Below are positions 2,941-9,442 of a stretch of DNA of 64,000 bases, piece after piece (positions within the stretch are counted from its first letter, which is position 1; each line of letters begins with the position of its first letter). The DNA is from an uncultured Holophagales bacterium (lineage in GTDB: Bacteria > Acidobacteriota > Thermoanaerobaculia > Multivoradales > UBA5704), in NCBI GenBank assembly GCA_963842525.1, contig CAWJGT010000019.1:96001-160000 (forward strand), read 5' to 3'. The notes under the pieces are model-generated. The model had not been told where the DNA came from. It was given only the letters and a program-made list of their open reading frames with translations, and searched no databases. A program made the position numbers and the translations under genes.

Positions 2941-3345
2941 CTACGGGACCTGCTGGTCGGGCGGGGAGGCTGTCGTCCCCGAGATGCTCGTCTCGGGAGT
3001 CTCCCCGTCCGGCGGCTTCACCGGCTTGCGCGGGCGCTTGCGGATCGGCGCCACCTTGAACTGCACGAGGCGCTCGTTCTTCGGGCCGATCTTCGCCCGG
3101 ATCATCGAGCGGACCCGGATCGCGACCTCCTTGCCCTGGGTCAACGCCGCGTGAAGCTGCTGCGTGACCTCCTGCCGCAGACCGCGAAGCTCGTCCTGGC
3201 GCGCCTTCAAGGCATGTACTGTCTCCAGCCACTGCACCAGGGTCAGGCGTTCCGTGTCGAGGACGGACTGAAGATCGGGGCTCAGCAGAACCGATTCGTT
3301 CAGCCCCGTCCAGTCGCCGGTGACATCGTTGAACGAGTTAGGCAT
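2941..3345 (-). CDS. Small helical/coiled-coil hypothetical protein (134 aa) with basic, Pro-rich tail
   Basis: RBS GAAAGGAGG before ATG at 3345; helical body, then IGPKNERLVQFKVAPIRKRPRKP. Confidence 0.75.
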   Translation of the reverse strand: MPNSFNDVTGDWTGLNESVLLSPDLQSVLDTERLTLVQWLETVHALKARQDELRGLRQEVTQQLHAALTQGKEVAIRVRSMIRAKIGPKNERLVQFKVAPIRKRPRKPVKPPDGETPETSISGTTASPPDQQVP

Positions 3346-3863: not shown

Positions 3864-6800
3864 TTATGCGCCAGACAGACCGTAGCGTGCCTGGATTCGC
3901 CGGATCTGGTCCGCTTCCGGAATGCGGAGGCGTTCGGCATCCTGGAGGGCTCTCACGAGTAGCTCGGCCGCCCGCTCGTGGTCGCCCTCCTCACCCCGGT
4001 CGAGGTAGATCGAGGCGATGTTGGCCCAGGTCACCAGACGGCTCCGGACATCGCCGAGTCTTTCGTAGACGGAGAGCTCTTCCTCCCGACGGATCTGCAG
4101 GGCTTCGTTGAGCTGCCCCTGCGTTTGCAGGATTTCGGCGATCCTGCCGAGAGCCGCGGCGCGCGAGCGCACATCGCCGAGCCTTTCGAAAACGGGGAGC
4201 ACTTCCTCCTGACGGATCTTCAGGGCTTCGTCGAACTGACCCCGAGATTGCAGGATGTCGGCGATCTTGCCGAGAGTCACGGCTCGCTCCCGCACGTCGC
4301 CAAGCCTTTCGTAGACCGGGAGCTGCTCCTCCTGGCGGATCTTCAGGGCCTCGTCGAGCTGACCCCGAGATTTCAGGATGTCGGCGATCTTGCCGAGAGT
4401 CACGGCTCGCTCCCGCACGTCACCGAGCCTTTCGAAGACCGGGAGCTCTTCCTCCTGCCGGATCTTCAGCGCCTCATCGAGCTGACCCCGAGACTGCAGG
4501 ATGTCGGCGATCTGGCCGAGAGTCACAGCGCGATTCCGCACGTGGCCGAGCTTTTCGAGGATGGGGAGCACTTCCTCTTGCCAGATCCTCAGGGCCTCGT
4601 CGAGCTGACCCCGGGTTTGCAGAATGTTGGCTGCAAGATTCCGAGCCTGGGCAACCTCACGCTCATCCTCACGCCGGCGGTCAACGTCGGCCTTCTCCTG
4701 GGCCGCAGCGAATGCGCGGTCCATCGCCCCAGCCTGCCTAGAGACCCAGCCGAGGGTCCAGAGAAAAGCCGACCTCTCGTCATCGGACGGTCCCTGTCGC
4801 AAGGCTGCCTCACAGAGCTCGGCCCATGCCCGGAAGGGTCCGTTCATCCAGGCGTACTCCCTCCCGGCCGTCCGTACCCGAGCCCGTTCGGCCGGCGGGA
4901 CGAGAGGCAGCCAGGCGGCCAAAGCCAAGTGCTCGGCATTGACCTCTCCCCAGGCTCGCCCCTGCTCCGTTTCCTGGCCGTGGGGGAGCCGCGGCAGCCG
5001 GGCTACGAACCATTCGGTCATGCGATGCGCTTCCGCACGGTCGCTTCCTTCTCGCAACAGCTCCGCGATCATGGGGTGGATACGCCATGCGCCGTCCGGC
5101 CGCTCGTTGCGAGAGACCGGGAGGAGAAGCGACAGCCGCTGGGCGTGGACTACGAGCTCTTCCATCTCGTCCTCCCCGAGCCCCGCCAGGGCGGCGCCCA
5201 GGCTCCTTCCGAAGCCGGTCAGCGGCGCATGCCCCAGTGCGCGCAGACCGGCGAGGAGATGGCTGGCGGCTTCCCCCAGCTCTGCTGTCAGGATCTCCAG
5301 CGAGATCTCGACGCTCGCCGTGAGAATCGTCCGCGCTTCCTGGGAGCCTTCGGCGACCACTCCGGCGCGGTGGAAGGGTTCCACCCGCAGCCCTTTGACA
5401 TGCAGCTTGCCCAGGAGGCCCGCGGCCGTGCCTCCGTGCCGCAGGTAACCGGCGGCGAGGTGGATTGCCAGCGGGAGCGCGCCGAGAGCCGCGACCAGGT
5501 TGCGGTGCTCCTGGCCCTCCTGCGGCGTAGCGGGCTCGCGTTCGAGCTCGGTCCAGAGCTGCTCCAGGGCCGTTTCTTCCGGAAAAGGTGCGATGCGGAG
5601 CGGACGCCACCCCTCCTCCCAACCCAGATCCTGGAGCCGGCCGGTGATCACCAAGGCGCAACCGCGCAGACCGCGCAGCAGGCGGATCACCTCCCGCTCG
5701 GCGGCCGGGGAGTCGACGTTCTCCACATGGACCAGGGTGCGCGGCTGGAGGAGCCGCTCCCGCAGGGTCGCTTCCAGCTCGGCTTCGCCCGCCCGCAGCT
5801 CCAGCCGGTCGGCAAGTTCCTGGCGCAGGGACTGAACCGCGGCCGGGGCCTGAGGGTCCACCACCAGCCGGACGTAGCCGCCAGGGAACCGGCCGGCGTT
5901 CTCATGGGCGAAGCGGTCCGCCAGATAGGACTTGCCCACTCCGGGCATGCCCTCCACGGCACAGACCGCCACCGGCCGGGCGTCTGCCGATTCGGGTAGC
6001 AGCAGCTCTTCGAGGCGCCCCAGCTCCTCGCGGCGGCCGACGAAGAGCTGCGTCACCCGCTCCGGCACCTCCGGCGGGCCGGTCCGGGGGCGCACCTGCC
6101 AGATCGCCCAGCCGTTCCGGCTCTGGCGGTAAAGGCTCGGATCGTCGAACCAGAAGCCGCTCCGGGGGCTCCAACCGCGGAAGCGCAGAGCTACGCTTTC
6201 CAGCCGGCCGGCGTCGTCGAGGTCCATCTCGAGGCGGTGCAGGCGTTGGGCCACTGGTCGGCCCGCCCTCCTTCGTAGAGACAGCCGGCGGCGGACTGTC
6301 GCAGGCGGCGGTCCGGGTCCGCCCATTCCGAAACCTCCGGCTCGTGGAGATGCCCGCGCAGGATGAGATCGACCCACTCCCCCAGGAGACGCCGGACCTC
6401 CGGCCCATCGGCCAGAGCGCTCAACGGATGGTGCACCAGGGCCAGCCGCAGGCCCGGCAGGTCGCCGTCCGGACCGCTGCACAGACGCCCTACCTGGTCC
6501 TGGGTCAGGAGCACCTTGCCTTCGTCGTTGTCGTCCCCGCACAGCCAGGCCGAATCCAGGCCGATGACGTGGACGTCGAAAGGGAGCCCCGGCAGCCGCA
6601 ACGTCTGGCGGTAGCCGAGATTCGGGTGGAGACCGGGGTCTGGCAAGAGCGCCTCGCGGCCGAGCTCCCCAAGCCATGCCCGGTAATCCGCCTGGCGGGT
6701 GAGGAGACGGTCCCTCTGCGCGTCGCGGAAGCTGCCGTCCTGGTCCTCGCCCATCATCCATCGGGAGAGGTCGAGACGGTCCCGCGAGACCGCCTTGGGG

Positions 6801-7126
6801 CGGAGAGACCGCCAGAGCCTCTCCTCCGTCTTCCGGTTGATGTCATGGTTGCCGGGGATGACGAAAAGGCGGTCCCGCGAGAGGCCGAGCGCGGAGAGCG
6901 TCTCACCCAGCAGATCGCCCGCCCGCGAGAATTCCCCGGCAAGACCCCAATCCGCCGCATCCCCGGTAAAGCAGACCAGGTCGATCGGCCCGCGGTCCTG
7001 GATATCCTTGAGGTTGTCGAGCCATGCCTGGCCCAGGACACGCCGGCGCCGCCAAGTCTCCTTCTCCCGGGAGCCGCGCTCGTGCAGGTCGGAGAGATGC
7101 AGGAGCCGCAGTTTGTGGCTGGCCAT
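3864..7126 (-). CDS. Calcineurin-like metallophosphoesterase + NB-ARC/STAND ATPase + TPR protein (one apparent frameshift near 6240)
   Basis: LHLSDLH, FTGD, IPGNHD, HHP and GHLH phosphoesterase motifs; Walker A GMPGVGKS; ALPLAIHLAAGYL; TPR repeats. Restoring one C near 6240 joins WPNAC to HRLEMDLDD. Confidence 0.85.
3990..4640 (-). repeat. About 5 near-identical 123-bp (41-aa) TPR-coding tandem repeats
   Basis: Unit RGQLDEALKIRQEEELPVFERLGDVRERAVTLGKIADILKS; GCTGACCCCG recurs at 4358 and 4481. Confidence 0.9.
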
Positions 7127-7280
7127 GTGCCCTAAGAATATCGGAAGAGCTGTGCCACGGTCTGGGGGGGAAGCCCCGCAGGGGCGCAGGCATAAAGATG
7201 CTATGCAGGGCGAGGGGGTGCAAGAGCGGGGCCGCTGGTTGTATGTTTCGGGGAACTTAGCGTTTGAAAGGGGAACCCCG

Positions 7281-8420
7281 ATGAACCAGACAGCCCAGAA
7301 GGCAGAGTTTACGCGAACGGAGAGAGCATTGCACGTGGCATTGGAGCTGGGCGGTAGCGAGTGGAAGTTGGCTTTTGCTGCGGAGGCTGGCCCGAAACCT
7401 CGGCTGCGCTCGGTGGCGGCCGGGGATCTCAACGGGCTGATGTTGGAGATCGGACGCGCCAAACACCGTTTCGGTTTACCGGAAACAACTCCTGTCGTGA
7501 GTTGCTACGAGGCAGGCCGGGATGGATTCTGGCTTCACCGGTTCTTGCTGCTGGAGGGTGTGGAGAACGTTGTGGTGGACTCCTCGAGCATCGAGGTGAA
7601 TCGTCGGGCTCGGCGGGCGAAGACGGACCGGGTTGACGCTGAGAAGTTGCTGTCGCTGCTGATCCGCTACGCGGCAGGTGAAAGAAAAGTGTTCGGTGTG
7701 GCGCATGCGCCGACGCCGGAGCAGGAGGATGTGCGCCACCTGGGTCGAGAGTTGGAGGGCCTGAAGCAGGAGCGGACGGCCCACACCAATCGGATCAAGT
7801 CCTTGCTGGTGAGCCTTGGAATCCGGGTGAAGGTAGGCAAGGGGTTTGCGCAGCAGTTGGAGCAGTTGCGGCAGTGGAACGGCGAGCCGCTGCTGCCAGT
7901 CTTGCGGGAGCGTCTGCGTCGGGAAGTCGAGCGGCTGGAGCTTCTGGAGAGTCAGATCAAGGAGTTGGAGCAAACTCGGCAGCGGGCCGAAGCCGCGTCC
8001 AGAGAGGGCGGGATGGTGCAGCGGCTGAAAAAGCTCAAGGCCATCGGCGACAACAGCGCCTGGTTGTTCGTCCTGGAATTTTTTGGCTGGCGGCAGTTCC
8101 GGAATCGCCGTGAGGTAGGCAGCTTGGCTGGGTTGACGCCGATGCCCTACAAGAGCGGCACGACGGTGGACCACGAGCAGGGGATCAGTAAGTCCGGCAA
8201 TGTGCGGGTGCGTACGATGTCGATCGAGATCGCCTGGGCGTGGTTGCGGTTCCAGCCGCAGAGCCGCTTGAGCTTATGGTTCCAGGGGCGCTATGGCCCT
8301 GGGAACCGGCGCTCGCGACGGGTAGGGATCGTGGCCCTGGCGCGCAAGCTTCTGACCGCGCTGTGGCGCTACTTGGACCAAGGGATCATTCCTGATGGCG
8401 CTGAGCTGAAGGCCAGGTAA
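7281..8420 (+). CDS. IS110-family transposase/recombinase
   Basis: HVALELG, SCYEAGRDGFWLHRFL, RRAKTDRVDA, AGLTPMPYKSG, GISKSGN and VALARKL motifs (DEDD RuvC-like domain plus Tnp_20 domain). Confidence 0.95.
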   Translation: MNQTAQKAEFTRTERALHVALELGGSEWKLAFAAEAGPKPRLRSVAAGDLNGLMLEIGRAKHRFGLPETTPVVSCYEAGRDGFWLHRFLLLEGVENVVVDSSSIEVNRRARRAKTDRVDAEKLLSLLIRYAAGERKVFGVAHAPTPEQEDVRHLGRELEGLKQERTAHTNRIKSLLVSLGIRVKVGKGFAQQLEQLRQWNGEPLLPVLRERLRREVERLELLESQIKELEQTRQRAEAASREGGMVQRLKKLKAIGDNSAWLFVLEFFGWRQFRNRREVGSLAGLTPMPYKSGTTVDHEQGISKSGNVRVRTMSIEIAWAWLRFQPQSRLSLWFQGRYGPGNRRSRRVGIVALARKLLTALWRYLDQGIIPDGAELKAR

Positions 8421-8464
8421 GGATCAAGAGGCAGAAAGTGTGACCGCAAAATAGGAGATTTCAG

Positions 8465-8660
8465 GCTGGGAGGAGCGTGCCCGGCGCCAGGCTGGGTTCG
8501 GTTTCGAGCCGCCATTAAAGATGGGGCCGCTCCGTTTGCTTGCCCGAGTCGCTCGCAGCGCATGCTGCATTTGGTGCCCTCTCCAGGAAATTGAGGGAGG
8601 TCAGCACGGATAGAAGCTTGACGGGGACTACGGTTCCTGGCGCAATCGGCAAGCCCCAGA
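8465..8660 (+). ncRNA. Putative IS110 bridge/seek RNA with target- and donor-binding loops
   Basis: Stems GGAGCG/CGCTCC and GCTTGCC/GGCAAGC enclose loops carrying CCAGGCT and TAAAG (target matches) and GCATTT and ATAGAAG (circle-junction matches). Boundaries approximate. Confidence 0.65.
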
Positions 8661-8801
8661 CGGGATCGCATTTGAGGTAGGAGAAACAGCACCTTGCTGC
8701 CGGGGAAGCCCCGGGCAACAAACCTCAGGCGGCATTCAGGAAGGAGACGAAACGCAGACCCACTTACCCGAAACGCTTGACAACGGGGGCCCACATAGAA
8801 G

Positions 8802-8991
8802 CCTGGGGTTTCAACCCCAGGTTGGGCCACCCCAAACATCCCGAAGTCCCGAAGGGACGCCGGCGAATCCACCACCCTCGCGGGGTTGTCACCCCGCGGC
8901 CATGCCGTCGCCCCTTCAGGGCTGTGGGTCAATATTGGGCCTCGGTCCTGGGGTTGAAACCCCAGGCTTTACGCCTATGCCCCTTCGGGGC
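8802..8991. repeat. REP/REPIN-like palindromic element (left part at 7173-7197, split by the IS)
   Basis: Inverted CCTGGGGTTTCAACCCCAGG / CCTGGGGTTGAAACCCCAGG arms with GCCCC-NNN-GGGGC hairpins. Confidence 0.85.
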
Positions 8992-9154
8992 TCCTCACGA
9001 GGCCCCGGTGATCGCCCGAACCTTCGAGGGCTTCCTTCCCGCGGCAGGTGTGCGTTTCTGTCAAACTCAGAGGGGTCGGCAAGCAACAGATGCCGTGTCC
9101 GCGGACCGCCGAGCCATGGCGGCCCGGCATGTGCCGCGGAGGAGGAGGGAAGGT

Positions 9155-9442
9155 ATGTCTCGTCGCCATGTCTCTTGTCTCGTTCTGATTGGAGTCCTGA
9201 TCTCGACCCTGGCGTTTGCCGGACCCGTCCATGCCCAAGCCGCGGACCAAAGCGGATCGGCCGGCGTTCTGGGATGGTTCAGCAGCCTGTGGAATAGTGT
9301 TGTGGCTGCGATCTGGCCTGCCACGGCGGCACCGACCTCAGACTGCGGCCCTGGAGTTTGATCCGAACGGCTGCCCACCTCCAGGAGTGCGGCTCAAGCG
9401 GGCCAAGGGGACATTGGCCCGGGCTTCGACCCCAACGGTTAG
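9155..9442 (+). CDS. Small secreted precursor peptide with two D-x-GPGFDPNG motifs (two compensating indels near 9356 and 9388)
   Basis: RBS GGAGGAGG; signal peptide ending VHA-QA; DCGPG/FDPNG spans a +1 shift; terminal DIGPGFDPNG-TAG is in the start frame (288 nt total). Confidence 0.7.

Follow-up and report, generated by a model that had tools for sequence, protein, structure and literature searches.

Does the 1.6-kb insertion sequence found in an uncultured Holophagales bacterium (assembly GCA_963842525.1, contig CAWJGT010000019.1) carry an RNA that directs it to the very repeat in which it sits? The stretch of DNA analysed, hereafter the window, spans 64,000 nt (contig positions 96,001–160,000, forward strand), and the element, a member of the IS110 family, interrupts a repetitive extragenic palindrome (REP) within it. 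RNA-guided insertion has been established for relatives of this element (PMC11208160, PMC11208158, PMC11187229), and an original prediction, made from the letters of the window, had proposed an intact recombinase with an AG core and a bridge/seek RNA programmed to the REP. We consider it very likely that the element is complete, RNA-guided and REP-targeting, with an IS1111-type layout, and that it is probably active, its mechanism being assigned by homology. The locus is a clear new example of the mechanism described in 2024, and no new mechanism. The element and its insertion site have the following parts.

7173–7197 (+): left half of the interrupted REP, similar to Acido-Lenti-1, with the hairpin GCCCCGCAGGGGC, a linker ending in GCATAA and the left core AG (7196–7197).
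7198–8801 (+): IS110-family element of 1.6 kb, with the AG core flanking it on the left and forming its last two letters (8800–8801).
7198–7280 (+): left end of 83 nt; ATGC (7198–7201) is the half-site for the donor loop and CTATG (7201–7205) the subterminal repeat.
7281–8420 (+): recombinase (transposase) gene, 379 aa.
8461–8663 (+): predicted bridge/seek RNA (extent of the model, roughly 195 nt), probably closed by CUGGG (8466–8470) and CCCAG (8655–8659).
8777–8782 (+): TTGACA, candidate −35 box of a junction promoter, 19 nt before the right end.
8792–8801 (+): right end CACATAGA and right core AG (8800–8801), with the subterminal CATAG at 8794–8798.
8802–8821 (+): right half of the interrupted REP, hairpin CCTGGGGTTTCAACCCCAGG; a partial RF01687 match covers 8783–8821 on the minus strand (23.4 bits).
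8947–8992 (two-hairpin unit 8940–8995): uninterrupted REP copy in inverted orientation, matching Acido-Lenti-1 with 38.6 bits (gathering score 37).

Deleting 7198–8801 joins ...GCCCCGCAGGGGCGCAGGCATAAAG to CCTGGGGTTTCAACCCCAGG. The rejoined site has the two-hairpin layout of the uninterrupted copy at 8940–8995 (on the opposite strand) and of empty copies elsewhere in the genome, in agreement with the original prediction that this excision restores a REP arm. The repeat is restored once the element and one AG are taken out, and there is no other target duplication. Non-coding sequence is distributed unevenly in the window copy, with 83 nt upstream of the gene and 381 nt downstream. Three REP-like hairpin units are clustered here, with Rfam hits at 8783–8821 (minus), 8879–8923 (plus, weak) and 8947–8992 (plus), and the insertion lies in the left arm of the cluster.

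We searched the 9.95-Mb assembly (34 contigs) for further copies. The window element belongs to a lineage (A) of four copies at four loci, ∼100% identical over 1617 bases and each with an open 379-aa frame. All four are inserted at GGCATAA-AG-CCTGG(C/G)G, the same position of the same REP, with the right flank reading CCTGGCG in three copies and CCTGGGG in that of the window. Mapping other copies, a check that had been suggested for this locus, therefore placed the same element at the same REP position in 4/4 cases, and the near-identical open copies fit the description of the element as intact; we also take them as a sign of recent activity. Two sister lineages, B and C, share 76–77% DNA identity and the same ends (AG-ATGCTATGC ... 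CACATAGA-AG). Lineage B comprises five full copies and one partial copy, all in GGCCTTCGGCCTC-AG-CCCTGGG, and lineage C two copies, in C(A/T)CTC-AG-CTCCGCCCG. As proposed, AG is the core: the 11 full copies of the three lineages each have it at both ends, and the partial copy has it at its right end. Including both AGs, the elements measure 1606–1608 (A), 1554–1558 (B) and 1578 (C) nt.

The target pattern of lineage A, TAAAGCCTGG[CG]G, occurs at 45 genomic sites. By 9-mer count, its cognate sites comprise 24 with CCTGGGG, 19 with CCTGGCG and four that are occupied, so that the occupied fraction is 4 of about 47; CTCAGCCCTGGG is found 13 times in the genome. Individual copies differ in small ways. 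At position 8586, within the apical loop of the hairpin in the donor loop, the window copy has G where the other three lineage A copies have A, and in copy A4 a hairpin further downstream (∼8699–8716) shows a minor change that is compensated. The partial lineage B copy (C9:1835717–1836563) is without its left part. The two lineage C copies lie at C23:156819–158399 and C23:167716–169296, in a different repeat that is not a simple palindrome (...CGGGCAGTTGAGGCC...CTCAG|CTCCGCCCGA...). Empty lineage C sites are present on C1, C23 and C27, and for two of these sites the contig end is ∼1.8 kb away; because unoccupied copies recur near contig ends, this target may belong to another repeat or mobile element.

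What, then, tells each lineage where to insert? The RNA predicted downstream of the gene has two domains, with the following features.

8472–8533 (+): target-binding loop (loop 1), with an outer stem formed by 8472–8482 and 8524–8533 and an inner hairpin at 8495–8510.
8485–8493 (+): 5′ target guide CGCCAGGCT, 9 nt, reverse complement of core plus right flank (AG-CCTGGCG).
8513–8520 (+): 3′ target guide (CAT)TAAAG, equal to left flank plus core.
8521–8522 (+): AT after the 3′ target guide, the first two letters of the left end; a handshake-like position.
8538–8654 (+): second domain, with a long stem of 8538–8544 and 8648–8654.
8550–8560, 8564–8617 and 8623–8638 (+): inside the second domain, a small hairpin, the donor-binding loop (loop 2) and a further hairpin.
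8567–8572 (+): 5′ donor guide GCATTT, of which GCAT pairs with the left-end ATGC; the last two letters are unconserved in relatives.
8610–8616 (+): 3′ donor guide ATAGAAG, equal to right end plus core.
8617 (+): C after the donor-loop core, in a handshake position; identical to the letter with which the right target flank begins.

The positions given in the original prediction were all exact, both for the stems (GGAGCG 8472–8477, CGCTCC 8528–8533, hairpin 8495–8510) and for the loop letters (CCAGGCT 8487–8493, TAAAG 8516–8520, GCATTT 8567–8572, ATAGAAG 8610–8616).

The letters of loop 1 differ between lineages A, B and C just as their targets do, which supports the proposal that this loop holds the target guides. 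On its 5′ side the loop reads CGCCAGGCT in A, CCCAGGGCT in B and GGCGGAGCT in C, each the exact reverse complement of its own lineage's core plus seven right-flank letters; on its 3′ side it reads TAAAG in A and CTCAG in both B and C, corresponding to three left-flank letters plus the core. In an alignment of the 3′ ends, the framing stems, loop 2 (GCATTT ... GGATAGAAG) and the element ends are alike in all three lineages. The segment CCAGGCT, originally named as the right guide, does pair with the right flank, and its extent is now refined to 9 nt (8485–8493); the match is 9/9 in three of the four lineage A copies.

The same relation extends to relatives in other genomes. We located element ends by their conserved terminal motifs in 97 elements, of which 81 had exactly one right-end candidate, 15 none and one more than one; for the left end the numbers were 78, 18 and one. 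Guides were scored as the longest exact match anchored at the junction, irrespective of register, and permuted among related elements. The 5′ loop scored 6.39 against its own core plus right flank and 2.76 against foreign ones (n = 67; 0/5000 shuffles as high), and the 3′ loop scored 5.05 against its own left flank plus core and 2.72 against foreign ones (n = 62; 0/5000). Guide segments thus covary with their targets. Could these matches nevertheless be a by-product of GC-rich palindromes, arising by chance or flank capture, with the protein alone choosing the site? The targets of several of the closest relatives are indeed similar REP stems (CCCAGGG, CCCTGGG, CCTGGGG), which explains why some foreign pairs score high (74 of 4372 reach 8 or more). 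However, lineage C and many distant relatives lie in unrelated, non-palindromic sites and still match their own loops, with 9-nt matches in loci L061, L063 and L114; retaining one element per distinct loop hardly changes the result for the 5′ loop (own 6.16, foreign 2.69, n = 50; 0/5000 shuffles); and the guide letters sit in a conserved structural frame with covarying stems. We give a by-product of this kind virtually no chance of being the explanation, and favour target choice by the RNA.

That structural frame was found well beyond the window. Related ends were present in 13 other genomes of the 300 searched within the same order of bacteria (14/300 with this genome). In the RNAalifold consensus of 18 sequences from these 14 genomes, both guide pairs fall in internal loops, and 13 of the 40 predicted pairs show compensatory changes. 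From this alignment we built a covariance model (R1) and ran it on 79 loci that code for related proteins. These loci are the best-ranking among 175 confirmed ones and represent, among other groups, Acidobacteriota, Chloroflexota, Planctomycetota and delta-proteobacteria; the closest relatives by locus search were metagenome-assembled genomes (MAGs) of Thermoanaerobaculia (Acidobacteriota). R1 identified 72 RNAs, which fall in 71 of the 79 loci, all closely downstream of the match to the recombinase gene and, with the exception of a second hit in locus L046, on the recombinase strand (71/72). In the resulting alignment (62 distinct rows), 91.5% of cells were paired, compared to 31–44% with slid partners, 32 of the 40 pairs were altered on both sides, and the observed score was reached by none of 500 shuffles. 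This alignment was fitted to the model and hence favours the structure, but the slid controls, made on the same alignment, were still far lower. The helix closing the whole RNA (8466–8470/8655–8659) received moderate support (69.7% paired, compared to 22–58% when slid). A scan of 6800–9400 against Rfam 15 (E up to 1) returned Acido-Lenti-1 as its sole match and no bridge-RNA family; Rfam therefore does not cover such an RNA. A bridge/seek RNA with a target and a donor loop, as first proposed, is thus supported by the consensus fold, by compensatory changes and by the covariation of guides and targets. In L046, two related bridge RNAs lie tail to tail within ∼400 bp on one MAG contig (2372–2562, plus; 2946–3136, minus), representing two elements that adjoin in opposite orientation.

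Does loop 2 read the element's own ends? Against its own left end, the first four letters of the 5′ donor guide scored 3.35/4, compared to 2.64/4 against foreign ones (n = 34; 0/5000 permutations as good). All four letters matched in 17 of the 34 elements and three in another 13, with the covarying pairs GCAT/ATGC, TTAT/ATAA, GGAT/ATCC, GTAT/ATAC, GTTT/AAAC and ACAT/ATGT. The core positions of this guide read TT, TG, AG, GT and others in relatives. The proposed pairing of GCATTT with AGATGC through one G–U pair therefore stands in part: GCAT tracks the left end, whereas the G–U pair is not conserved in relatives and, because the two core positions vary freely, is not a conserved requirement. 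On the other side, the 3′ donor guide GGATAGAAG hardly varies, nor does the right end, and covariation is therefore uninformative there. The two loops are also linked crosswise, as in the handshake base pairing described for IS621 (PMC11208158). In 51 of 57 elements, the letter after the donor-loop core equals the first right-flank letter of the target (permuted mean 17.7; 0/10000); the second letter does not track the flank (7/57). After the target-loop core, 36 of 45 elements have AT, the letters with which the left end also begins.

These observations bear on another account, in which a short seekRNA corresponding to loop 1 (∼8466–8535) finds the target, the protein recognises the ends through their subterminal repeats, and loop 2 holds no donor guide. 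For IS1111-type elements, the most abundant RNA copurified with the transposase is 82–96 nt long and carries the two target matches (PMC11187229), and the near-invariance of the 3′ donor guide and right end leaves that side untestable by covariation. Yet the letters of the 5′ donor guide track the left end better than in any permutation, the stems of loop 2 show compensatory changes, and the letter after its core follows the target flank, which only makes sense if loop 2 sits in the synapse. We regard a purely seekRNA-based system as improbable and prefer a bridge RNA in which both loops are read. In IS621, each synapse takes its two loops from separate RNA molecules (PMC11208158), so that a short form and a long form of the RNA could both have a role.

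The protein encoded upstream is an IS110-family recombinase, as had been proposed. It starts at a conserved MNQT (7281); the longer frame from 7204 is absent in lineage B. The NCBIfam model NF033542 ("IS110 family RNA-guided transposase") matches with 193.6 bits (cut-off 140), Pfam PF02371 with E = 3.9e-15, and PF01548 with 29.9 bits (cut-off 29), the last over profile positions 50–152 only, with the N-terminal part missing. By sequence, the ISCro4 and IS621 entries of the PDB were matched in the C-terminal domain only (E about 3e-6 to 4e-6). A structure model built from 119 sequences (predicted local distance difference test score 94.1) resembled them over the full-length fold: the ten best Foldseek hits were all ISCro4 or IS621 chains (template modelling (TM) scores 0.57–0.63/0.68–0.74), headed by ISCro4 9t56 and IS621 8wt9/8wt6 (TM 0.62/0.73). 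The protein combines RuvC-like residues E22, E77, D116 and D119 with a coiled coil and a Tnp domain containing S292-G293 in GLTPMPYKSG; E77, D116 and D119 are invariant and S292-G293 is ≥90% conserved. Alignment with the transposase of IS5075, which belongs to the IS1111 group (hhalign probability 99.4%, residues 16–365), places ALELG on GIDLG (E22 on D), YEAG on MEAC and KTDRVDA on KNDFVDA, and tblastn against IS5075/IS4321 gave about 28–29% identity over residues 114–362. The motif ALELG in place of GIDL, noticed in the original prediction, is a feature of the clade: in the query and 139 representatives of ≥340 aa (out of 150 listed), E occupies position 22 in 116 sequences and D in 20, with a gap in the other 4. 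Judging from the sequence, Glu22 would be a conservative change within a predicted D-E-D-D set that is joined by the Ser of the SG motif.

If Glu22, or the weak subterminal repeat, has crippled the system, the copies could be recent fossils that display inherited features and are immobile now. The Glu at the first catalytic position would fit this view, as would a lineage B copy, B5 (C11:201258–202822), whose frame is shortened to 325 aa compared to 378. On the other hand, Glu is the majority state in a large clade found across many phyla and in multiple copies in several genomes, so it is unlikely to be crippling; the four copies at four loci that are ∼100% identical over 1617 bases retain open 379-aa frames; and, with 4 of about 47 cognate sites occupied, there is room for further insertions. 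Immobility is thus quite improbable in our view, and an active element remains the preferred reading.

How would such an element move? The joined ends of a circular form would read ...CACATAGA-AG-ATGCTATG... and could complete a promoter. A TTGAC at a distance of 16–22 nt (mostly 18–19) from the right end is shared by 47 of the 49 distinct tails compared among relatives, amid letters that otherwise vary, and the joined ends would supply the −10 boxes GATGCT, GATAAT or GATACT at a spacing of 17–18 nt. In the window element, G8801 and ATGCT (7198–7202) would form the candidate −10 box GATGCT across the circle junction. Junction promoters have been reported for ISEc11 and ISEc21 (PMC11187229). 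In some relatives (L058, L054, L105, L070), subterminal inverted repeats of 15–27 bp include the TTGACA region. Taken together, the gene would encode a bridge recombinase of the DEDD type, here E-E-D-D plus Ser292, and the downstream DNA, on the same strand, a bridge/seek RNA of ∼195 nt with two internal loops. Loop 1 would read the target, a REP palindrome associated with a REP-associated tyrosine transposase (RAYT), and loop 2, in the same geometry, the element's own joined ends (CATAGA-AG-ATGC). The circle would insert by recombination at the shared AG dinucleotide with no other duplication, and the promoter of TTGACA and G/ATGCT, formed only in the circle, would drive the recombinase and probably the RNA. 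Production and binding of the RNA, circle formation, the chemistry of recombination and current activity are features that we infer because the system as a whole is homologous to IS621 and to elements of the ISEc11 type.

Public sequencing runs matching the locus comprised 11 DNA rows (10 soil metagenome, one metagenome), one of which contained at least half of the words, and included no RNA run. Over 7050–8950, the contigs of four DNA runs contained no circle junction and no clean empty site; the missing junction argues neither for nor against circle formation. One contig joining 7193 to 8903, with 22 letters on one side, was taken as a cross-match between REPs and left unused.

Several observations weigh against the reading of the locus as a working RNA-guided element. 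The window copy, sitting in the REP variant CCTGGGG, matches its 5′ guide at 8/9 positions, 7 of them contiguous, with one mismatch, and its 3′ guide over only 5 contiguous letters. In 14 of 67 relatives, the own right-side match is ≤3 letters long. In L025 (G257:C26), the right flank AG-CTCGAGC misfits the 5′ guide CCCCAGGCT entirely, which could reflect an off-target insertion or a later rearrangement; the left flank of this element fits its 3′ guide (CCCTCAG). Folded as a single sequence, 8455–8660 is not distinctive (z = −1.71) and its guides are partly paired internally, which is why the consensus fold was used instead. In most relatives, the 5′ donor guide lacks complementarity to AG at its two core positions. 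The subterminal inverted repeat of this element spans just 5 bp (CTATG/CATAG), and 828 of 2000 shuffles aligned locally as well as the two ends. A scan of 7100–8900 for sigma-70-like promoters found no sites in the integrated copy. Finally, the predicted first catalytic residue is Glu and not Asp.

Is the target a true REP? REPs associated with RAYTs are short palindromes that occur in many copies and border Y1 (RAYT-like) transposase genes in inverted orientation. At least 122 matches to RF01687, the Acido-Lenti-1 family, are present in this genome, at least 98 of them above the gathering score, with 150 of 2775 candidates scored, and many form minus/plus pairs ∼154 nt apart. Y1 genes occur within inverted copies of the target repeats in the following regions.

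C9:225218–225850: Y1_Tnp (PF01797) gene at 225386–225727, between TAAAGCCTGGCG and its reverse complement.
C34:527600–531640: three Y1_Tnp genes between inverted lineage B repeats.
C3:199294–199941: Y1 gene at 199401, between RF01687 hits.
C32:133447–134160: Y1 gene at 133626, between RF01687 hits.
C14:203974–204874: Y1 gene at 204236, between RF01687 hits.

The proposed REP target thus holds, the repeat being abundant and flanking Y1-transposase genes in inverted pairs. Since the repeats used by lineages A and B flank Y1 genes, these lineages target the REPs of two RAYT-like genes. And because inverted copies of it surround such genes, Acido-Lenti-1, listed in Rfam as a small RNA, is likely to be, in this genome, the REP of a Y1 transposase. 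As late as 2026 it has been called abundant, with its function given as unknown; in a literature search that covered paper titles and selected passages, we found no link between the family (original description, PMC2864571) and REPs.

From here we lean, if only slightly, towards a wider picture in which three propositions would hold jointly. First, Acido-Lenti-1 would be a RAYT-associated REP, a repeat at the DNA level that serves as a landing pad for RNA-guided insertion sequences. Second, the three lineages would have kept donor loop and ends, rewritten only the target loop, and come to occupy three repeat families, two of them REPs of different RAYTs, which would amount to a natural case, with its own internal control, of modular reprogramming and of niche partitioning among insertion sequences. 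Third, the window element would belong to a clade of ∼380-aa E-E-D-D proteins found in many phyla and sharing a two-loop RNA at the 3′ side, the AG core and the handshake positions; this clade would stand between the textbook IS110 and IS1111 groups, which would differ only by a cassette inversion.

Bridge/seek RNA recombinases are under development as programmable tools for DNA insertion. The locus adds no new principle to them; it provides a natural experiment, with three related recombinase/RNA pairs in one genome that have the same donor loop and different target loops, and for which the empty and occupied sites are known. It could help in selecting orthologues and in judging which guide lengths and mismatches are tolerated. 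The guide rules suggested here are a 5′ guide of 9 nt, a mismatch-tolerant 3′ guide of 5–7 nt and a one-letter handshake. In addition, the analysis gives an Rfam family of unknown function a likely identity, as the REP of a Y1 transposase, and documents a large clade with Glu as the predicted first catalytic residue. Elsewhere in the window, the list of open reading frames contains a frame of 965 aa (3864–6761, minus), known from that list alone, whose C-terminal half consists of repeated units (...RGQLDEALKIRQEE...).

How does the element compare with known systems? With the IS1111 group (ISEc11, ISPa11, ISKpn4, ISPst6; PMC11187229, PMC11208160) it shares the long non-coding end downstream of the gene, an RNA on the gene strand in which, read 5′ to 3′, the top-strand match precedes the bottom-strand match (PMC11187229), a lineage-specific target, a junction promoter, which is predicted here, and the GL-P----SG motif. 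The right-guide-first order noted in the original prediction is accordingly correct and already published for IS1111-type seekRNAs (PMC11187229). The group differs in its transposases of 330–350 aa, compared to 379 aa here, and its subterminal inverted repeats of 7–17 bp, compared to 5 bp here (PMC11187229), while the window element has Glu as first catalytic residue and its clade comes from Acidobacteriota and other soil phyla. Because the protein has 379 aa and the subterminal repeat is only CTATG/CATAG, we file the element, on sequence grounds, under the IS110 family with an IS1111-type layout, short of assigning it to the IS1111 group.

Other elements share its choice of target. ISPpu9 and ISPpu10 of Pseudomonas putida (PMC12288879, PMC11208160) also belong to the IS110 family, insert into REPs and have a small RNA gene downstream of the transposase; their host phylum and REP are different, and the likeness is one of published description (PMC12288879). 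The Acido-Lenti-1 model (RF01687), matched by the target repeat here, stands in Rfam for a small RNA gene, whereas in this genome the repeat is a multi-copy REP, often in inverted pairs, and a landing site for insertion sequences. IS621 of E. coli (PMC11208160, PMC11208158; PDB 8wt6–8wt9) likewise targets a REP. It has a two-loop bridge RNA with a longer 5′ guide (8–9 nt) and a shorter 3′ guide (4–7 nt) in each loop, handshake positions, which are a relation across the loops (PMC11208158), and the same protein fold (TM 0.62/0.73). Its core is CT (PMC11208160, PMC11208158); the AG found here is CT on the opposite strand, and the loop geometry is identical. In contrast, the protein of IS621 has 326–328 aa with Asp as first catalytic residue, is similar in sequence only in the C-terminal domain (E = 4e-6), and its RNA lies in the left end, upstream of the gene, whereas here it lies downstream, the cassette being inverted relative to the ends. 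The comparison suggests that what separates the IS621 layout from the IS1111-type layout is solely the direction in which the gene/RNA cassette lies between the ends.

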